Below the pieces are notes generated by a model. The model made no database searches. It was not told the origin of the DNA and saw nothing but the letters and a program-made list of their open reading frames with translations. Shown in pieces: positions 7,592 through 15,043 of a stretch of 15,043 bases of DNA (position 1 is the stretch's first letter; each line of letters opens with the position of its first letter). The stretch is taken from the IMG/VR virus record IMGVR_UViG_2541047845_000008; one strand, written 5' to 3'. This DNA is from a virus. Taxonomy: Duplodnaviria; Heunggongvirae; Uroviricota; Caudoviricetes. The translations under genes were made by a program, and so were the position numbers.

Positions 7592-7852
7592 TTAATTAAC
7601 GTCTTCCGGTGGTACTGATTGCACTGTGCGGGGCTTCACCTTTTCCAGATATGCGATGAGCGCATCAATCTGTTCAGGACCAGCCGCCAGAATTTCACCG
7701 GAAAGCGTGCTGCGTAAAAAACCATGATGATCAACCCAGAATATCGCCCCCGCCGCCAGGTGCTGGCGATAACGCTCCGTTGTCGTGTGGGCCGGATGTT
7801 CAAGGCCGAATAATTCGCGGTGTCGTTTAATTTCCTCTGTGGTTACTGGCAT
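7592..7852 (-). CDS. Hypothetical protein (86 aa)
   Basis: ATG at 7852 with AGGGGG Shine-Dalgarno; overlaps the 3' end of the upstream PerC-like gene by 10 nt. No family recognised. Confidence 0.55.
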   Translation of the reverse strand: MPVTTEEIKRHRELFGLEHPAHTTTERYRQHLAAGAIFWVDHHGFLRSTLSGEILAAGPEQIDALIAYLEKVKPRTVQSVPPEDVN

Positions 7853-8823: not shown

Positions 8824-9050
8824 TGTCTACCTTATCTACCTTACTGGCTCTCATGCCAGTAATGGCGCGGCTTTCAGCGGGGTAGAGTGCTTTTATCCAC
8901 TATCTACCCCGTATCTACCTCCCTGTCTGATTCAGGTAAAATCAGGTAGAGAGGGTAGATAGTAGGTAGACAGTGAAAAAAGGCTGTCTACCTAAGTTAA
9001 TATACTGAATTAAATGTATTTTTCTTTACTCAGGTAGACAGGGTAGACAG
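8824..9050. repeat. Iteron array and AT-rich segment: putative replication origin
   Basis: Eleven copies of an octamer with core TCTACC / GGTAGA in a non-coding stretch just 3' of the primase gene. Forward copies (TGTCTACC or TATCTACC) at about 8824, 8833, 8901, 8912, 8985; inverted copies (GGTAGA-CA/TA/GA/GT) at about 8881, 8945, 8954, 8965, 9033, 9043. An AT-rich spacer (about 8994-9030) is flanked by inverted iterons. Confidence 0.7.
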
Positions 9051-9063
9051 CCATTGCAAAAAA

Positions 9064-10818
9064 TTATAAAAACGCGTCGCAATCGTCTGTTGTTATTGCG
9101 TTAGTCTGCGTTACTCCCTTAACTTTCCGCGTAATATATTCATGTCCGTAAACTTTCGCGGCTGGCTTCATAGCCTTGCCAAAGTCATTTACGTTTAGCG
9201 GTTTGCTCCTGCCTGCGTATGCCATAAACGCCAGATAGACGCGGTAAAGGCTGTTCCTGGTCGTGTACTTCACTGAATCGCCACCGCCCCCCATCATCAG
9301 GCCGCGCGCTTCCTCCAGAAAATTCAGGAACTGGCAAAACTCAATAACCGGATCCGTCTGTTGCTTTATTGCCAGTGCTTCATCACCGTCACGCTGTTCC
9401 AGTAGTAAAGCCCGTGCCTTCTCAGGGTCGGTAAAGTTCGCCAGCAATCGGCGGATAATGACAGGGATTTCAGCCGCAATCTTTTCCGGTAGCTCCCTGT
9501 CTTTTTCGGCCTCACTGACGATATTGTCGAAACGGAAAATTACGCGACGACGTGACACACCTCCGGCCCGTTCGGTGAATATCATCGGATTGTTATTGGT
9601 TGCCAGCACCACCGCCCTGATTACCGCCGTAAAACGCTTTTCATATTTCGGGTTAATTTCCACGGGGTCGCCGCCCGTGATTTTCTTGATGCCCGTTCCT
9701 TCGCCTGTATATTTCGGCTGGTCAGCCAGGACGATAAGACGACTCCCGACAACCTGCGCACGTCCACCAGCATCATCAAGCGATGTCATTTCAGCGCTTA
9801 CCGTGTTCTGTTTCCCTGCCAGAAGGCTGGCTATGTGCGTGAATGTACTTTTACCGCTCCCGCCATCTCCGGTGGCCTCAATAAACATCTGCCAGTCGTA
9901 CCGGTTCGCCATAATCATGTACAGCGCGGCACATATACGCATCATCTTGCGCGGGTCTTTTCCGGCTGCGTGCTCAAGCCATTTATGAAAGTTTGGCGCG
10001 TTATCGCGGATGTTCTCCCCTGGTGCTGGTGGCGTGTACTCAATGCCGTTGTGCGTGGTGATCCAGTTCTCCGGCGTGTGCGGGGAAAATTCCCCCGTTT
10101 TCAGGTCAAGCGCACCATTGGCGAACGGCAGCAAATCGCCGGACGGCTCGCCCATTGGTTCGGCAATAACTTTTAACGCTTCCACGGCGTTATTGATTAC
10201 GCGCTTGCTGAAAGTGGCCCTGTGCTCTGAATAGATCGCCACCATTTCGCGGCTAAGTTCCATTGTGCTGACCGGACACCATACCCCGCCGCGCCATACG
10301 TGAACGATTTCACTTTCAGGATGTACGCAAACGCCATCAAAGCGATCGGCAAGCAGCTGCGCGCGCTCACTGTCCGCCATCTGCGAAAGTTGCGCCTTTT
10401 GCTTTACCGGAAGCTCAATGACCAGACCATCAGAAAGATTCTGGCGCTCACGGGCCAGATATTCGCGCCAGTTCTCCACCTTCTGACCGTGCATACCCTC
10501 AGGATAAAAATTTGCATCCTGTACGCCTGCCGCCGCCAGCTTCTGGCCAATCGCCTTTATCATTACTGGCGCAAGATATCCGGCCCTGAATATGCGCACG
10601 GATTTTCTGCCTTCCGGCACAATTTGCAGCTTATCCAGTTCTGATAACTGCTGCTCCCCAAGCCACACAGGAGGCTCATTATCTCCGGCCATACGCGCAT
10701 CATGTTCCTGCCATTGTTTCGCGTGTGCCCAGGCATCACTACCCGCAAAAATAATGACTTCTGTTCCTTTGTGTTTTATGCCGCGTGACTGCTGTTTTAC
10801 GTTCGGTGCCAGTTTCAT
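9064..10818 (-). CDS. DNA primase/replicase, P4 alpha-like family
   Basis: 584 aa with Walker A GDGGSGKST and surrounding NTPase motifs; architecture resembles satellite primase-helicases. Its ATG overlaps the stop of the upstream small gene (ATGA). Confidence 0.85.
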   Translation of the reverse strand: MKLAPNVKQQSRGIKHKGTEVIIFAGSDAWAHAKQWQEHDARMAGDNEPPVWLGEQQLSELDKLQIVPEGRKSVRIFRAGYLAPVMIKAIGQKLAAAGVQDANFYPEGMHGQKVENWREYLARERQNLSDGLVIELPVKQKAQLSQMADSERAQLLADRFDGVCVHPESEIVHVWRGGVWCPVSTMELSREMVAIYSEHRATFSKRVINNAVEALKVIAEPMGEPSGDLLPFANGALDLKTGEFSPHTPENWITTHNGIEYTPPAPGENIRDNAPNFHKWLEHAAGKDPRKMMRICAALYMIMANRYDWQMFIEATGDGGSGKSTFTHIASLLAGKQNTVSAEMTSLDDAGGRAQVVGSRLIVLADQPKYTGEGTGIKKITGGDPVEINPKYEKRFTAVIRAVVLATNNNPMIFTERAGGVSRRRVIFRFDNIVSEAEKDRELPEKIAAEIPVIIRRLLANFTDPEKARALLLEQRDGDEALAIKQQTDPVIEFCQFLNFLEEARGLMMGGGGDSVKYTTRNSLYRVYLAFMAYAGRSKPLNVNDFGKAMKPAAKVYGHEYITRKVKGVTQTNAITTDDCDAFL

Positions 10819-11114
10819 TTTTTACCCCTGAATCCTTTAATCATGGTTTTCATCTTCTGAATATTGGCGCGTGCTTTCTCCCTGCTGGTGGGCACGTTAC
10901 GCGGTACGGCCTGCACAAGAGAAAAATCACGGTCGAACTGATAAACAGGCATCACGCAATCATATTCGTAGCCTTCACGACGGTAGGTTACGCGCCGTTC
11001 CTCCACGCCCTTAATCATTACCGTGCCGCCGTACTTATCGCGGTAAATATCACCGCGCATGAATTTAGTGCGAGTTTTGCCACTGGCAGTTAAGCCAGAA
11101 TATTTAAGTTTCAT
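10815..11114 (-). CDS. Hypothetical basic protein (99 aa)
   Basis: ATG at 11114; translationally coupled to the primase gene. No family recognised. Confidence 0.55.
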   Translation of the reverse strand: MKLKYSGLTASGKTRTKFMRGDIYRDKYGGTVMIKGVEERRVTYRREGYEYDCVMPVYQFDRDFSLVQAVPRNVPTSREKARANIQKMKTMIKGFRGKK

Positions 11115-11119
11115 TATTT

Positions 11120-11353
11120 TTATTCTCCGGTGTGGGGCGCTTTATACTGGTCGTGTAATGTCTCTATTTCCTGCAACTCATTTATTACAGGCTCAAGAAG
11201 CGTTATTAATGCCGTGACAATCCTTGATTTCTGTTTATCACGTTCATTATCTCCAAGCGTTTCAAGACATATGCGCAATATTTCCAACATATTTTCACTG
11301 TGAGAAAGTGCAAGAAATGCGCGGTCTATTGTTTCGTGGTAAATATCACGCAT
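11120..11353 (-). CDS. Hypothetical acidic protein (77 aa)
   Basis: ATG at 11353 with GGGGA Shine-Dalgarno, immediately after the stop of the upstream gene. No family recognised. Confidence 0.5.
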   Translation of the reverse strand: MRDIYHETIDRAFLALSHSENMLEILRICLETLGDNERDKQKSRIVTALITLLEPVINELQEIETLHDQYKAPHTGE

Positions 11354-11354
11354 A

Positions 11355-11576
11355 TTAATCCCCGTCCGTCGTTTTTCTTAAAATAACCTCTGTCACGAAA
11401 TCAGCATAATCGGCGGCGATATTCAGTACATCAAGCACCGTTGATTTATATTCTCTCGTGGAAAGTAAGAAAAAAGCCGCTCTAATAAGTTCTGGCATTG
11501 ACGAAAGCGCATCAGCCGCATCATCAGGAACGCCGGAAAATTCCTGTTTCAGGGAATTAAAACGATTATCACGCAT
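11355..11576 (-). CDS. Hypothetical acidic protein (73 aa)
   Basis: ATG at 11576 with GGGGGG Shine-Dalgarno; overlaps the upstream gene by 8 nt. No family recognised. Confidence 0.5.
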   Translation of the reverse strand: MRDNRFNSLKQEFSGVPDDAADALSSMPELIRAAFFLLSTREYKSTVLDVLNIAADYADFVTEVILRKTTDGD

Positions 11577-11934
11577 GTTTACCCCCCTGAATGACCTGAT
11601 AACCGCAACTGGTCAGCAACTCGATAAATTCCGGCAGTGTGCCGAAACAGCAATCATCACGCAGCCGTTCGCAGGATACCTCGACGCCGTTTTCGTAGTG
11701 ACTCACCATACATCCGGTAAAATGCAGATCATCATCGTGATGGCTCGTTGACGGCTTAATCAGTCGCGCACGTTCCGCCAGTTCCAGCAATGCTTCAACG
11801 CTTCCGGCAATTGCACCATCCGGCAGGTGATAATTACGCACTATGCGCCCGTTCTCCACATTGACCAGCAACTGCCCGGTAAATTTCTCGTCAAACTGAA
11901 TGCTGTTAAGGTCAGAAATTGACAGGTTATGCAT
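11569..11934 (-). CDS. Hypothetical protein (122 aa)
   Basis: Preferred start is the ATG at 11934, preceded by a perfect AGGAGG Shine-Dalgarno at 6-nt spacing (the track ORF extends to 11952). Cys/His-containing; no family recognised. Confidence 0.55.
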   Translation of the reverse strand: MHNLSISDLNSIQFDEKFTGQLLVNVENGRIVRNYHLPDGAIAGSVEALLELAERARLIKPSTSHHDDDLHFTGCMVSHYENGVEVSCERLRDDCCFGTLPEFIELLTSCGYQVIQGGKHA

Positions 11935-12151
11935 GGTGCACCTCCTGCACATCAGCCATGATAATTTTTCCGGCCTTATCCAGTGCCTGATCGGCTTTTA
12001 GCTGCACAAATGCTAAATAATGGAAGATGCATTCTGATTCTCTGGCTGCGTGTTTATGCGCCCTGTCAGCAATAACAGAAATATCAATCAGCGCATGCAT
12101 TAGCGTTATGATGGCTTCGGCGGCTGCGTCCGGACGGGTGTTATTGCACAT
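11927..12151 (-). CDS. Hypothetical protein (74 aa)
   Basis: ATG with GGAGG Shine-Dalgarno; overlaps the downstream gene by 8 nt. No family recognised. Confidence 0.5.
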   Translation of the reverse strand: MCNNTRPDAAAEAIITLMHALIDISVIADRAHKHAARESECIFHYLAFVQLKADQALDKAGKIIMADVQEVHHA

Positions 12152-12347
12152 GGCACACCTCCTGACGAATACGGGCAGCGAATACCATCACGCAGCCAGC
12201 CGGGGATTGCTGGCGTGCTTCCTGTTCGCTGGTGGCCTCAATGGTAATCACGCGCGGTTGTGCCGTGCTCAGGGCGATAAAACGCCAGATGTATTTATTC
12301 AGGTTGTGCGAATCCCGCCCTTGCGGGTGTGTGGTATGATTTAACAT
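12141..12347 (-). CDS. Hypothetical protein (68 aa), first gene of the leftward operon
   Basis: Only the 3' 68 codons of the 354-aa track ORF are plausible: ATG at 12347 with GAGGT Shine-Dalgarno, just downstream of the predicted leftward promoter. The rest of that ORF runs antisense through the regulatory region. Confidence 0.4.
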   Translation of the reverse strand: MLNHTTHPQGRDSHNLNKYIWRFIALSTAQPRVITIEATSEQEARQQSPAGCVMVFAARIRQEVCHVQ

Positions 12348-12443
12348 AGCTACCTCGATACTTTCGCTATCGTTGGTGGTTAGAAGCCCCGTTACTGCTC
12401 CTACAGTGCGGGGTTTCGTCGTTTCTACACCTTGCCTTAATAA

Positions 12444-12497
12444 GGTGTTGAACACCAATTTAAATCGAGGTGTTAAACACGTCAAGTGTTGAACACT
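12444..12497. promoter_or_regulatory. Three palindromic operator-like sites in the divergent control region
   Basis: GGTGTT-G-AACACC (12444-12456, perfect), GGTGTT-A-AACAC (12469-12480) and AGTGTT-G-AACACT (12485-12497, perfect); centre-to-centre spacing about 25 and 16 bp, between the leftward operon and the rightward small regulator gene. Confidence 0.6.
12457..12485 (-). promoter_or_regulatory. Candidate sigma70 promoter of the leftward operon
   Basis: On the minus strand: TTGACG (-35, plus 12485-12480), 16-17 nt spacer, TTAAAT/TAAATT (-10, plus about 12463-12457). Operator sites overlap the -35, spacer and start region. A rightward candidate (TTGAAC at 12489-12494, 17 nt, CATACT) lies back to back. 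Confidence 0.4.
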
Positions 12498-12546
12498 TAT
12501 TTTTTTTCCTGCATACTGCATTTGTTTTTTATGAAGGGTGCTCAAC

Positions 12547-12726
12547 ATGGCGACAAAAGCAGTAAACGCAAAATCACAAACAGTTGCGGCAAGGGTTCCA
12601 CATGAAGTTATGAACAATGTTGAGGCGGTAAAAATGCCCGGCGAAAGTACAGGGCAGTTTGTTACAGCTGCATTAAAGCGGGAAGTTGAATACCGCCAGC
12701 GTCGCAAGGCCAAAGAATCAGAATAA
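12547..12726 (+). CDS. Small ribbon-helix-helix-like DNA-binding protein (putative island regulator)
   Basis: ATG at 12547 with AAGGG Shine-Dalgarno (the track starts on GTG at 12538). The pattern beta-strand (QTVAARVP), helix (HEVMNNVEAV), turn (KMPGES), helix (TGQFVTAALKREVEY), then a basic tail fits the RHH (Arc/CopG-like) fold. Encoded next to the operator array. Confidence 0.5.
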   Translation: MATKAVNAKSQTVAARVPHEVMNNVEAVKMPGESTGQFVTAALKREVEYRQRRKAKESE

Positions 12727-12783
12727 TCACTATCAGCGCCGTGGCGTGAGGTACTCCGGCGCATTGCTTTACAGGTCAGTACT

Positions 12784-12993
12784 ATGAGCAAAAAACACCG
12801 ATCAGCAGATGAGATTTTTGCAGAACAACGAAGATTGCTTTTGCAAAGTATCATTTCACGCCAGCAAGAGAAGGCGCGAGCTAAACAAATGCCACCAAAT
12901 ACAGAACCAGCGCCTACAAGATTTGCGCTTGATGACTTTCTCGATAAACACCCCAGGGTAATGAAAGCAAACAAAAACCGCCCACCAGGCTGA
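12784..12993 (+). CDS. Hypothetical protein (69 aa)
   Basis: ORF downstream of the RHH gene on the same strand, followed by a strong terminator. No family recognised. Confidence 0.4.
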   Translation: MSKKHRSADEIFAEQRRLLLQSIISRQQEKARAKQMPPNTEPAPTRFALDDFLDKHPRVMKANKNRPPG

Positions 12994-13088
12994 TCACATT
13001 GCCCACCAGCCTGATAGCGGCTATCATCCCCGTGCTTATGTTTGAGATCACACACACAAACGGCGCAGCGGGTTATCTGTTCAGAAAG

Positions 13089-13116
13089 GCGGCTCCATTT
13101 CGGGGCCGCTTTTTTT
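13089..13116 (+). terminator. Rho-independent terminator of the rightward regulatory transcript
   Basis: GC-rich stem GCGGCTCC / GGGGCCGC (8 bp including one G-U) with loop ATTTC, followed by T7 (13110-13116). Confidence 0.6.
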
Positions 13117-13262
13117 ATTCCTGAAAAACCCCAATTTTGTTGTTTTTCAGTTTCACCAGGGCGAACGAATCCCCGCCCACGTTCTGGCGTATATTCAATC
13201 TTCATGGTTATAGCTCTGTGTTCAGATGATTGATGTGTGGCGGCTGCGTGCCGCCAGCGTGA

Positions 13263-13451
13263 TTAATGAACTGCCTTGCAGCTATCCTTCCAGGCCAGAA
13301 CCTCGGATAAAGACCAGCCAACGGAACGACCGCCAAGTTTACGACGTGATGGGAATTGTCCGGCCTTTTCCAGGCGGTAGCGACACGTACGGCTAAGGCC
13401 GGTTAGTTTTTCGCATTCTTTTTCACGTATAAACCGATCAGTGCTTAACAC
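13263..13451 (-). CDS. alpA: AlpA-family transcriptional regulator / excisionase-like protein
   Basis: 62 aa; motif EKLTGLSRTCRYRLEKAGQFPSRRKLGGRSVGWSLSEVLAW is the characteristic AlpA helix-turn-helix signature. GTG start with AAGGGGG Shine-Dalgarno; directly downstream of int. Confidence 0.85.
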   Translation of the reverse strand: MLSTDRFIREKECEKLTGLSRTCRYRLEKAGQFPSRRKLGGRSVGWSLSEVLAWKDSCKAVH

Positions 13452-13825: not shown

Positions 13826-15043
13826 TTATTTTCTTCTGGCTACTGGTAGCGTGGTTACGTTTTCATGTGTTCCCGCCAGTATCCCTAACCGCTCCGTCCA
13901 CATATCCAGCGCATTGCGTTTAGCATCCAGATAACGGGAATGATTATAAACTCGCTGCATTCCTGGCATCTGGTGGCCTGTAAGCTGCTCCACGACATGC
14001 GGATCAACGCCTAAATCGTTCAGCATGGTTGTAAAGGTGCGCCGGATGTCATGCAGTGACCAGTGAGGGTGATTAAGCCTCCTGTGCACTAATCTGCCGT
14101 ACTGCGATACGCTGGCCTCCTGTTTCACTTCCCCCAGCAATAAGCCCGTGTGCCTGTTCTGCTCCACCAGCTGCGTGACGAACGGCAGGATCGCTTCCGG
14201 TATGGGCCGGAATATTGCGACCTTCGTTTTGCTGTGCTCCTTCGGAACGGTCCATAGCATTTCCGTAAAATCCCACTCCCCGATCTCCGATAACCTCAGT
14301 TCTACCGTTCTGGCTCCGAAGACAATCAGGAGGCGGATTAACGCGACGTAGTAAGGGGAAAATATTTTTTTGTCCAGTGCCTGCAATAATTCGCCAAGTT
14401 CTTTGTTACTTAAGACACGTTCGCTTATATCCGGTTTTTTCCCAACGTCCGCCACGTTCAGATCGTCCAGAACGTTGCTGATTGCATAGCGCCGCCTACG
14501 GCAAAACTTAAGCGCCTGTTTGCACGCCTGTAGCACGAATCCGGCAGTAACAGGCGTTCGCTTTGCCACCTGGTCAAAACAGGCCAGCCAGTGCCGTAGC
14601 TCGCATTTATCCAGCGGCATAGCACCAATCTGCTGTATTACGTGATTATTAAGTCGCCTTTTCAGGGCGATATAATCCACGCGGTTTTCCTTTACGTAAT
14701 ACTCAAGCCAGTAGGTGAGCGCATCGCCAACCGTTACCGGCTTTAACGCTTCCTGTACGGTGTAATTAAGCTCATGACGTGGATTTTTCCCCTCTGCCAG
14801 CCATGCGCGACACTGGGCGGCTTTTTCCCTGGCTGATTTCAGGCTCAGATCAGGATAATTTCCCAGCTTAATGCGTTCCGGTGGTGCCCCCCTTCCCGTT
14901 CCGGCCCTGTAAGTGAAATACCAGGTCAATTTCCCTGATGTTAAATATTTCACGCTCAGGTTTCCGCCATCACTATAAAACGTGTTTTTCTCCGCTGGCT
15001 TACCATGAAGTTTCCTTAGCAAGGTATCGCTCAGTTTGTTCAT
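13826..15043 (-). CDS. int: Tyrosine recombinase, P4-type integrase
   Basis: 405 aa; N-terminal arm-binding-like region, core-binding domain, and catalytic C-terminus with R ... HDIRRT ... and YNHSRYLD (catalytic Tyr region). Its ATG is the last three bases of the window, so its upstream region and the adjacent att site are outside the window. Confidence 0.95.
   Translation of the reverse strand: MNKLSDTLLRKLHGKPAEKNTFYSDGGNLSVKYLTSGKLTWYFTYRAGTGRGAPPERIKLGNYPDLSLKSAREKAAQCRAWLAEGKNPRHELNYTVQEALKPVTVGDALTYWLEYYVKENRVDYIALKRRLNNHVIQQIGAMPLDKCELRHWLACFDQVAKRTPVTAGFVLQACKQALKFCRRRRYAISNVLDDLNVADVGKKPDISERVLSNKELGELLQALDKKIFSPYYVALIRLLIVFGARTVELRLSEIGEWDFTEMLWTVPKEHSKTKVAIFRPIPEAILPFVTQLVEQNRHTGLLLGEVKQEASVSQYGRLVHRRLNHPHWSLHDIRRTFTTMLNDLGVDPHVVEQLTGHQMPGMQRVYNHSRYLDAKRNALDMWTERLGILAGTHENVTTLPVARRK

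Follow-up and report, generated by a model that had tools for sequence, protein, structure and literature searches.

Icd-like and RgdR-like genes bracket a variable gene cassette ahead of the replication gene of a capsid-forming PICI

Introduction

What do six small, tightly packed genes ahead of the replication gene of a phage satellite do for that satellite? PICIs and capsid-forming PICIs (cf-PICIs) are common in E. coli and carry virulence and defence genes between strains. How a Gram-negative PICI stays silent, senses its helper and takes over the cell is partly known, and the operon studied here sits where these steps are decided. The whole stretch of viral DNA analysed, called the window below, is 15,043 nucleotides long. 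An initial annotation recognised none of the six genes (here g1 to g6, with g1 the first cistron), proposed helper-directed or host-takeover functions for them, and raised a duplication as the possible origin of two acidic neighbours.

Results

By its gene content the window is a capsid-forming PICI, which bears out the earlier assignment to a satellite. The window itself holds int, alpA, rep and SSB genes together with genes for capsid, protease, portal, connectors, HNH, TerS and TerL, and Pfam matches on its ORFs cover capsid, protease, portal, head-tail connectors, HNH, TerS and TerL. The integrase ORF (13826-15043, 405 aa) is a tyrosine recombinase according to the annotation of a 97% identical locus (L001), and the annotation of the homologous locus, which is flanked by the host genes phoQ and roxA, lists no tail genes. 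For one such island, EcCIEDL933, it has been published that a helper phage induces it and that it is packaged in small capsids of its own making, which use phage tails. None of the P4 signature genes (sid, psu, delta, epsilon/ash, cnr) is annotated in the 97% identical locus, P4 signature families have no match among the window ORFs scanned with Pfam and NCBIfam, and tblastn searches of a phage collection with g1, g3, g5 and g6 found nothing in P4. The authors who described PICIs likewise reported only AlpA, Pri-Rep and Int as distantly related to P4 proteins (PMC6092414).

The six ORFs run on the minus strand from 12347 down to 10815, with limits as annotated initially, and encode products of 68, 74, 121, 73, 77 and 99 aa (g1 to g6); the earlier size range of 68-122 aa holds, apart from its upper value, which had counted the stop codon of g3. 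All six genes and the primase gene start with ATG behind a purine-rich Shine-Dalgarno sequence, as claimed (GAGG for g1, AGGAGG for both g2 and g3, GGGGGG for g4, GGGGA for g5, GGAGA for g6 and AGGGG for the primase gene). The tight coupling and the position ahead of the primase gene were also confirmed, with overlaps of 11 nt (g1/g2), 8 nt (g2/g3) and 8 nt (g3/g4), spacers of 1 nt (g4-g5) and 5 nt (g5-g6), and a closing ATGA overlap between g6 and the replication gene (10818-9064, minus strand), whose 584-aa product carries D5_N, DUF5906 and Pox_D5, including a P4-family primase C-terminal region.

These ORFs are real genes rather than chance ORFs, because RefSeq annotates these six CDS in L001 as well and because dN/dS in the better-sampled comparisons of diverged alleles is 0.12-0.37 for g1, g2, g3, g5 and g6, rising to as much as 0.58 when the most distant alleles of g1, g2 and g5 are paired (g4 has 3 synonymous versus 11 non-synonymous substitutions, too few for a dN/dS verdict). 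It might still be argued that some of them are decaying or non-functional filler that passes ribosomes to the replication gene: g2, g3 and g4 have numerous database variants that carry an in-frame deletion, a truncation or a fusion, the few changes in g4 are mostly non-synonymous, and minimal islands have a single gene between the Icd-like and DUF4222 genes. We consider this quite improbable, given the low ratios of g2, g3 and g5 in the better-sampled comparisons, an N-terminal motif of g4 that is invariant across 22 sequences, and a g3 homologue kept in Salmonella at 76% identity.

Homology searches assigned the two end genes, so that the statement that none of the six is recognisable stands only for the four genes between them, which have no described family. 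The first cistron, g1 (12347-12141, minus strand, 68 aa in its short form), scores 69.8 bits on NCBIfam NF033153 (cut-off 25), the model on which P1 Icd scores 52.6 bits, and aligns with P1 Icd by BLASTP at 35% identity over 43 aa (E 4e-6). On this sequence similarity we identify g1 as homologous to P1 Icd, which the P1 record describes as a reversible inhibitor of cell division, required for expression of the overlapping ant gene. The two proteins share the core IWRF...A.TE.EAR.Q.P.G...F.AR, and each is encoded by a first cistron that overlaps the next gene and has a structured leader upstream. Unlike in the P1 immI operon (c4, icd, ant), the gene after g1 is not an antirepressor. A tblastn search of phage genomes with g1 returned one other cf-PICI-like record and nothing else; dN/dS of g1 is 0.15-0.29 in the closer comparisons and 0.58 against its homologue in island L008, the latter on 12 changes.

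The 5' limit of g1 is ambiguous because, unlike that of P1 Icd, its frame continues open for 286 further codons (12348-13205, minus strand) to an ATG at 13205. Across this upstream stretch there are no stops in the g1 frame versus 21 and 22 in the other two minus-strand frames, and shuffling puts the chance of such openness at about 2e-5, a value obtained by multiplying per-segment probabilities. Among the first 11 loci, the window counted, 8 have this frame open, and it is open in Salmonella and in a Klebsiella-type element as well. The complete open frame of 354 codons in phase with g1 runs antisense through the divergent ribbon-helix-helix-like (RHH) gene described below and through orf69.

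Upstream of g1, a predicted sigma-70 promoter (12457-12485, minus strand; TTGACG, 17 nt, TAAATT) keeps an unchanged position in all diverged alleles. Three copies of the palindromic operator GTGTT(G/A)AACAC (12443-12496) overlap this promoter at its -35 hexamer and spacer, and they also overlap the start of transcription. A divergent gene of the YlcI/YnfO family (12547-12726, plus strand; it scores 59.5 bits on NF041551, cut-off 30) encodes a protein that we read from its sequence as ribbon-helix-helix-like and regard as a candidate repressor of the operon; its predicted binding is consistent with an allele-specific covariation, in which the operator sequence switches together with the allele of the RHH gene. 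AlpA is the activator of Gram-negative PICIs, required for induction and itself switched on by the helper phage (PMC6092414); alpA of the window lies at 13263-13451 on the minus strand (Phage_AlpA, PF05930, 61.8 bits). The 5' leader contains a hairpin (12387-12413, minus strand; CCCCG-c-ACUG-uaggag-CAGU-aa-CGGGG) followed by a conserved C-rich tract, and 3 of its 9 pairs carry compensatory changes (RNAalifold, 9 loci). The hairpin matches no Rfam family, C4 included, and the whole window has no match to C4 antisense RNA or related Rfam families at E <= 1.

For g2 to g5, searches of Pfam, NCBIfam, PADLOC and the PDB yielded nothing informative, and g2 had no match in any of them. The mildly acidic g2 product (12151-11927, minus strand, 74 aa) matches phrog_5146 and the N-terminal half of phrog_2512, with dN/dS of 0.23-0.29, or 0.54 against the CFT073 homologue (42% identical). 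The acidic g3 product (11934-11569, minus strand, 121 aa) was given its start at 11934, which is preceded by the Shine-Dalgarno sequence; the first possible ATG, at 11952, would make 127 aa. Its N-terminal ~60 aa match phrog_340, its family turned up in Escherichia and Salmonella only, with many in-frame deletion variants, and in a Salmonella PICI the homologue adjoins DUF4222 directly upstream (dN/dS 0.27 against Salmonella). The AlphaFold2 model of g3 was unusable (pLDDT 48). The acidic g4 product (11576-11355, minus strand, 73 aa) matches phrog_24341 and the C-terminal half of phrog_2512, and its family turned up in Escherichia and Shigella only. Natural g2::g4 and g4::g5 fusions exist, among them an in-frame fusion of g2 with a g4 homologue into a 154-aa protein in the O157 islands L003 and L007. 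Together, g2 to g4 make up a mosaic cassette that our comparisons encountered in no genera other than Escherichia, Shigella and Salmonella.

The acidic g5 product (11353-11120, minus strand, 77 aa) matches phrog_2196 and is represented by no more than 8 clusters in a set of 1.84 billion representative proteins. Homologues occupy the same position in related islands (L008, L009 and L015), two of them detected by BLASTP at 41% and 25% identity and the third a 72-aa protein of a Klebsiella-type element that we call similar-looking. The dN/dS of g5 is 0.12-0.18 against four alleles and 0.50 against that of L008, and about 1-2 among three close alleles, on 8-9 changes. In most related islands compared, the slot immediately before DUF4222, or before the replication gene where DUF4222 is missing, is occupied by a g5-like gene. 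Of these small genes, the two checked, g3 and g5, were not found in isolated phages.

As the initial annotation had noticed, g4 and g5 encode adjacent acidic proteins (pI 4.5 and 4.9) that both begin with MRD and are close in size, and a tandem duplication could account for this. Such an origin is very hard to credit, since the two proteins give no BLASTP alignment at E <= 100, their profiles align by hhalign with a probability of 0.3%, they belong to different PHROG families, and related islands have g4 without g5 and g5 without g4.

The last small gene, g6 (11114-10815, minus strand, 99 aa, pI 10.2), scores 85 bits on DUF4222 (Pfam PF13973, gathering score 27), and by sequence its product is an orthologue of RgdR (ECs1581) of E. 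coli O157:H7. The two proteins are 86% identical, are both DUF4222 proteins of 99 aa, share RGD at 20-22 and K35, and are encoded upstream of an island replication gene. RgdR activates LEE1 and raises type III secretion, lowers motility and binds DNA weakly and non-specifically, and mutagenesis found the RGD tripeptide (20-22) and K35 important for its activity (PMC3378721). Within the DUF4222 family, G21 and D22 are invariant and position 20 varies (R 62, N 27, P 11, C 4, others), and at 4 of the 6 positions that separate active ECs1581 from an inactive ED1a variant (A10, K27, R45 and D61) g6 is ED1a-like. Structure prediction gives g6 the fold of a Tudor/KOW-like small barrel; Foldseek with this model gave no PDB match with an E value under 0.025, and a sequence link is likewise absent.

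The neighbourhood of g5 and g6 raises the possibility that these two, and perhaps others, are replication-initiation accessory factors that help to load the initiator, or to regulate it, at the island origin, whose iterons lie at 8888-8985; Cnr, the modulator of the P4 alpha protein, would be the model. DUF4222 sits directly before the replication gene and overlaps it with each of three initiator types (D5/P4-type primase, RepA helicase and DUF927), one lambdoid phage has a 59-aa DUF4222 ORF that overlaps the beginning of its gene for replication protein O, g5-like genes keep their slot even in an island without DUF4222, and the first 125-163 aa of the replication protein, common to the RepA-helicase and DUF927 alleles of other islands, travel with g5 and g6. 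The weak DNA binding of RgdR would also fit. However, specific binding to the initiator is hardly to be expected of a partner that serves three or four unrelated ones, g6 matches by tblastn are confined to 15 Klebsiella and Escherichia phages with none in P4, and RgdR expressed alone, without island replication machinery, alters host gene expression (PMC3378721). On balance we regard an accessory role in replication as possible but somewhat doubtful.

Discussion

We propose that g1 to g6 are probably the promoter-proximal genes of the early operon (regulation and replication) of the cf-PICI, forming a module that would take over the host and launch replication. Because a matching operon of strain ECOR61 causes phage-triggered death, we prefer to read the genes as an early module that is toxic or serves host takeover. 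There, orf24, an accessory protein of a phage, sets off cell death for which an Icd-like gene is needed, death-suppressing Tn5 insertions fell in this gene and the next two small genes, and the effect was rebuilt only with all six linked genes, primase included (Silas et al., bioRxiv 10.1101/2023.04.06.535777). The layout corresponds to that of the window: a single six-gene unit opens with an Icd-like gene and also comprises overlapping small ORFs and a primase. The host-takeover or helper-directed role suggested initially is thus plausible in view of the Icd homology of g1, the RgdR identity of g6 and this same-layout death operon.

In such a module, the divergent RHH protein would hold the sigma-70 promoter off from its three operators in the resident state. 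A helper phage would activate alpA, and the operon would then be expressed from its own promoter or by read-through from alpA, with ribosomes moving from cistron to cistron and ending in the replication gene. The Icd-like protein would stop host division and be toxic when unchecked, RgdR and its acidic partner g5 would change host transcription or DNA transactions and accompany the initiator, and the acidic g2 to g4 products would be exchangeable accessory factors directed at host or helper proteins. The net effect of untimely expression of the module would be to kill or arrest the cell. Several points count against the takeover reading: the uninformative searches with g2 to g5, the published RgdR phenotypes, which concern host virulence genes and not the satellite life cycle, and the predicted barrel of g6, which is a very common fold. 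In addition, the ECOR61 phenotype is not simply transferable, since the genes of 61 and 63 aa hit by Tn5 there gave no BLASTP homologue among g2 to g4 of the window, a comparison made through island type L009, with which the ECOR61 locus was equated by gene sizes and overlaps only. The Tn5 hits in upstream genes may also have been polar on downstream ones. That g5 and g6 go constantly with the replication gene fits a role in replication as well as one in takeover.

The same phage-triggered death could instead mean that the operon is primarily an anti-phage device for abortive infection or superinfection exclusion, in which small proteins recognise particular phage proteins and free a toxic Icd-like effector. 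Death in ECOR61 requires the Icd-like gene and the entire six-gene operon, a P4-type satellite similarly needs alpA, an Icd-like gene and primase for Abc1-triggered death (bioRxiv 10.1101/2023.04.06.535777), and rapid turnover of a variable cassette flanked by constant genes is what arms-race loci typically show. We find a defence function rather unlikely, as no PADLOC-DB 2.0 defence model matches g1 to g6 at E <= 0.1 and the death may simply be inappropriate island induction by a phage protein, the normal helper-sensing route. The cassette genes of the window also differ from those of ECOR61.

A more speculative reading, which we hold to be unlikely as a whole, is that the early operon is a three-layer switch so far undescribed for Gram-negative PICIs. 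First, the allele-specific YlcI/YnfO RHH repressor and its operators could be the missing master repressor. Second, AlpA-driven read-through could cross the repressor gene in antisense, and the conserved "spacer" frame in phase with g1 could keep this transcript translated, giving a long Icd isoform or escape from polarity. Third, g2 to g4, g5 and RgdR could set which phage or host proteins are sensed, with the Icd-like protein as the toxic output; here RgdR may be a free-standing Tudor/KOW-like barrel that binds RNA polymerase.

The operon combines a homologue of a division inhibitor, a regulator linked to type III secretion in EHEC and an island-variable cassette. Once the functions of g2 to g5 and the RHH-operator pair are settled, helper sensing and satellite-caused cell death become directly testable. 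The left operon of P4 (kil, eta, epsilon, cnr, alpha) likewise places small genes that act on host or helper ahead of a primase-helicase gene in a satellite. Across related islands, the Icd-like gene, a g5-like gene (in most), usually DUF4222 and the replication gene are constant and the middle genes vary, and parts of the block occur in 1777 of 5426 complete E. coli genomes.

The closest comparison is with the published islands EcCICFT073 and EcCIEDL933 (OI-51 / CP-933C), which share with the window the order int, alpA, divergent small gene and Icd-like gene, followed by small ORFs, DUF4222, replication gene, SSB and PerC; the packaging genes fit the cf-PICI definition. The islands of O157 differ in their middle cassette, which holds either the g2::g4 fusion or unrelated genes of 61 and 63 aa, and their replication genes are of the RepA or DUF927 type. 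EcCICFT073 differs by a 76-aa gene and the diverged g2 homologue noted above, and is without g3, whereas its primase is 99% identical to that of the window and its g4 and g5 are those of L001, with g5 identical to that of the window and g4 97% identical. The six-gene block is already annotated as a standard part of published E. coli PICIs such as EcCICFT073, and our result is mostly a clean placement of these genes in a known element.

A genuine six-gene operon in a capsid-forming PICI

The window is a capsid-forming PICI (cf-PICI), with ORFs matched to TerL, TerS, HNH, head-tail connector, head completion, portal, prohead protease and major capsid proteins and SSB, as well as to AlpA and a D5_N/DUF5906/Pox_D5 replication protein, and with an integrase ORF at its right end. 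In a homologous E. coli chromosome the island lies between phoQ and roxA and carries no tail genes. Six minus-strand genes precede the replication gene: g1 (12347-12141, 68 aa), g2 (12151-11927, 74 aa), g3 (11934-11569, 121 aa), g4 (11576-11355, 73 aa), g5 (11353-11120, 77 aa) and g6 (11114-10815, 99 aa), the last joined by an ATGA overlap to the replication gene itself (10818-9064, 584 aa). All six begin with ATG behind a purine-rich Shine-Dalgarno, and their junctions consist of three overlaps of 8-11 nt and two spacers of 1 and 5 nt. RefSeq annotates the identical set of six CDS in an E. coli chromosome with 97% identity over the block, and dN/dS was 0.12-0.37 for g1, g2, g3, g5 and g6 in the better-sampled comparisons of diverged alleles, rising to 0.58 in the most distant allele pairs. 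Three close g5 alleles gave values of about 1-2 (from 8-9 changes), and the g4 changes (3 synonymous versus 11 non-synonymous) were too few for a dN/dS verdict. ORF limits, Shine-Dalgarno sequences, RefSeq CDS and dN/dS therefore confirm the six consecutive coupled ORFs described in the initial annotation. Of 5426 complete E. coli genomes, 1777 contain parts of the block, but only 128 contain at least 80% of it.

Two further features lie elsewhere in the island. An 86-aa ORF (7592-7852, minus strand) occupies the spot where the homologous locus has an annotated PerC-family regulator; the ORF has no Pfam match at E <= 0.001, and PICI-borne PerC homologues are, according to published reports, LEE activators in some strains. 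The gap that follows the replication gene on its downstream side holds a 98-nt palindrome (8888-8985) with repeated GGTAGATA-type motifs; Rfam first flagged it through a miRNA match at chance level, and it is probably the island replication origin with its iterons.

Constant ends and an exchangeable middle

The window was compared with eleven islands (L001-L010 from Escherichia, Shigella and E. albertii, and the Klebsiella-type L015) and with two copies of a Salmonella island. At the near end of the operon, an Icd-like gene constantly follows the promoter; at the far end, a g5-like gene, DUF4222 and the replication gene follow one another in that order. These ends persist across at least three replication-gene types (D5/P4 primase family, RepA helicase and DUF927), with the g5-like gene recognisable in 9 of the 11 islands and DUF4222 absent only from the Klebsiella-type element. 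Between them lie one to five small genes from several unrelated families. In O157 islands g2 and g4 are fused as a 154-aa protein and the N-terminal domain of g3 is a separate 70-aa gene, whereas the CFT073 island has a 76-aa gene in place of g3, and in the Salmonella PICI the g3 homologue adjoins DUF4222 directly. Among the variants of g3 and g4 in databases there are numerous in-frame deletions and a g4::g5 fusion. Accordingly, g2, g3 and g4 are exchangeable cassette genes, and g5 holds the same position in most islands compared.

None of the six genes had initially been recognised, and this stands for g2-g5, which fall into no described family: they matched PHROG families only, all of unknown function, and nothing in Pfam, NCBIfam, PADLOC or PDB. 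Neither g2-g5 nor YlcI/YnfO has a function in the literature that we searched. Searching PDB by sequence and by profile with g1-g6 returned nothing meaningful, the best match being a designed helical repeat that reflected composition only. The g3 and g4 families were seen only in Escherichia, Shigella and Salmonella, g5 formed 8 clusters in 1.84 billion representative proteins, and neither g3 nor g5 had a tblastn match in 50,697 phage records. The AlphaFold2 model of g3, with a pLDDT of 48, was too poor to use. The two adjacent proteins beginning MRD, g4 and g5, had been proposed as a duplication; BLASTP found no match between them and profile-profile comparison gave a probability of 0.3%, and we reject the proposal.

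The first and last small genes have recognisable relatives

For g1 and g6 the initial non-recognition did not hold. The g1 protein scored 69.8 bits (cut-off 25) against the NCBIfam model of Icd-like inhibitors of host cell division, a model that phage P1 Icd also hits, and is 35% identical to P1 Icd over 43 residues (E 4e-6). P1 has icd as the first cistron past the C4 antisense RNA; icd overlaps ant1 there, and ant expression needs it (P1 record). Unlike P1, the window has no C4-type RNA: a whole-window Rfam search gave no C4, IsrK or other relevant RNA, and only chance-level miRNA and snoRNA matches. The sole tblastn match to g1 among phage records was one cf-PICI-like record. In one related island (L010, 3515-4804) and in the Salmonella copies (L013 and L014), the Icd-like domain is fused to Ash (PF10554; phrog_29966, 188 aa) or stands behind an AntA antirepressor gene; the operon's first position is therefore a hot spot for N-terminal Icd extensions.

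The g6 protein matched DUF4222 (85 bits, cut-off 27) and is an orthologue of RgdR (ECs1581), being 86% identical to the O157 protein that bears the published ECs1581 residues. RgdR is an OI-51 regulator that raises LEE1 and type III secretion, lowers motility and binds DNA weakly and non-specifically (PMC3378721), and it is encoded by all E. coli PICIs analysed by the PICI authors (PMC6092414). R20-G21-D22 and K35 are present in g6. Across 111 close homologues, residue 20 varies (R in 62, N in 27, P in 11, C in 4, and others) and G21 and D22 are invariant: the conserved element is GD, not RGD. AlphaFold2 predicted a small barrel of five strands and, after it, a long C-terminal helix (mean pLDDT 73, core 85-89). 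Foldseek against PDB gave nothing below E 0.025 with this very common barrel fold, the viral structure matches were uncharacterised, and there was no link at sequence level. RNA polymerase is a candidate RgdR target that would fit global, sequence-independent effects, which we offer as a lead and not as a result.

Because scanning genome contigs with g6 gave only two loci, our cross-species sample consists of E. coli genomes together with a single Salmonella contig and a single phage record. Among phage records, tblastn with g6 gave weak DUF4222 matches in lambdoid phages only. In Escherichia phage vB_EcoS-733R5 (L011, 3480-3659), and at the same spot in a second lambdoid record (L012), an unannotated 59-aa DUF4222 ORF is flanked by the cII-position gene and the gene for replication protein O, whose start it overlaps by 11 nt; both records annotate an opposite-strand ORF instead. 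The link between DUF4222 and replication initiators thus extends to lambdoid phages. The window's replication protein provides a separate observation: its N-terminal ~150 aa (10368-10818) matches the N-termini of RepA-helicase and DUF927 proteins elsewhere (64-83% identity over the first 125-163 residues), while the remainder of those proteins differs. This shared domain, which matched no Pfam family, travels with g5 and g6. That g5 and g6 are replication accessories is accordingly a live rival to a role in host takeover, to be set beside the published regulatory effects of RgdR.

A putative, covarying repressor-operator pair and a conserved leader

A sigma-70-like promoter was predicted on the minus strand at 12485-12457 (TTGACG, 17 nt, TAAATT), overlapped by three palindrome copies of GTGTT(G/A)AACAC that form putative operators (12443-12496). 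Divergent from the operon is a plus-strand gene of the YlcI/YnfO family (12547-12726), whose product in our own reading appears ribbon-helix-helix-like (the RHH gene). The promoter position is kept in every diverged allele while the repeats differ, changing jointly with the RHH-gene allele. Seven RHH alleles (in the window, L002, L003, L005, L008, L009 and L015) differ in the presumed DNA-reading strand, and at least six of them come with a distinct operator repeat. Such covariation would be the signature of a cognate repressor/operator pair, making the RHH gene a candidate for the master repressor of Gram-negative PICIs, which according to the literature is not yet identified (PMC6092414). 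The gene lacks annotation in some genomes (L003, 6019-6192; L009, 5239-5430). Past it lies a 69-aa basic ORF (orf69; 12784-12993, plus strand), 81% identical in L010 and without a family match; in other islands this slot is taken by another small basic protein, whose F-A-x-x-x-F-L motif is similar.

The 5' leader of g1 contains a conserved interrupted hairpin (12413-12387, minus strand) with compensatory changes at 3 of 9 pairs across nine loci and no Rfam family. Downstream follow a conserved C-rich tract, CUUCUAACCA(C/A)CAACG, and a short hairpin ahead of the Shine-Dalgarno. The leader hairpin is not an intrinsic terminator, since a U-run is absent. Complementarity of its loop to the g1 ribosome-binding region, sought by eye on the pattern of C4-type control, was inconsistent between alleles, and the idea was dropped.

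An open frame runs upstream in phase with g1

From the alpA stop to the g1 ATG, the g1 frame has 0 stops over 305 codons; the two remaining minus frames have 21 and 22. The open stretch (12348-13205, minus strand), read from an ATG at 13205, gives a 354-aa ORF, and it runs antisense across the RHH gene and orf69 and across the promoter. Openness antisense to the two proteins is unremarkable given those proteins (P about 0.24), and the two non-coding parts gave P of 0.013 and 0.016; the segments multiplied give ~2e-5. Eight of the 11 first loci, the window among them, have equivalent frames of 314-465 codons, as do the Salmonella PICI and the Klebsiella-type cf-PICI, over unrelated alleles of the antisense gene. 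The translation is mostly not protein-like, although Bro-N or Ash fragments appear in some alleles, and PGAP annotates such stretches as pseudogenes. Three readings can be weighed: the frame may encode a long Icd isoform, it may be a decayed fusion gene, or it may be selected only for holding ribosomes on a putative alpA read-through transcript, avoiding polarity.

Proposed role and relation to known systems

AlpA is required for PICI induction and is turned on by helper phages (PMC6092414), and Pseudomonas AlpA acts as an antiterminator, loading onto RNA polymerase. As the best mechanism at present, g1-g6 and the replication gene would form a host-takeover and replication-launch operon, whose output would be toxic if mistimed. 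In E. coli ECOR61, a phage accessory protein sets off cell death; suppressor Tn5 insertions fell in an Icd-like gene and the next two overlapping small genes, rebuilding death needed all six linked genes, primase included, and removing the Icd-like gene abolished it (bioRxiv 10.1101/2023.04.06.535777). An abortive-infection device is the other live rival for the operon; PADLOC matched none of the g1-g6 proteins. Under the host-takeover and replication-launch mechanism, the same death could reflect mistimed output.

The ECOR61 locus has the gene sizes and overlaps of island type L009, a type that carries RgdR proper as well; we therefore take the locus as an allele of the operon here. Its cassette differs from that of the window, and the match runs through L009 by gene sizes and overlaps alone. 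Of these results, the side findings on regulation are more original than the six-gene block itself: g1-g6 are a genuine yet standard component of a known satellite family, and the island has the same architecture as that published for EcCIEDL933.
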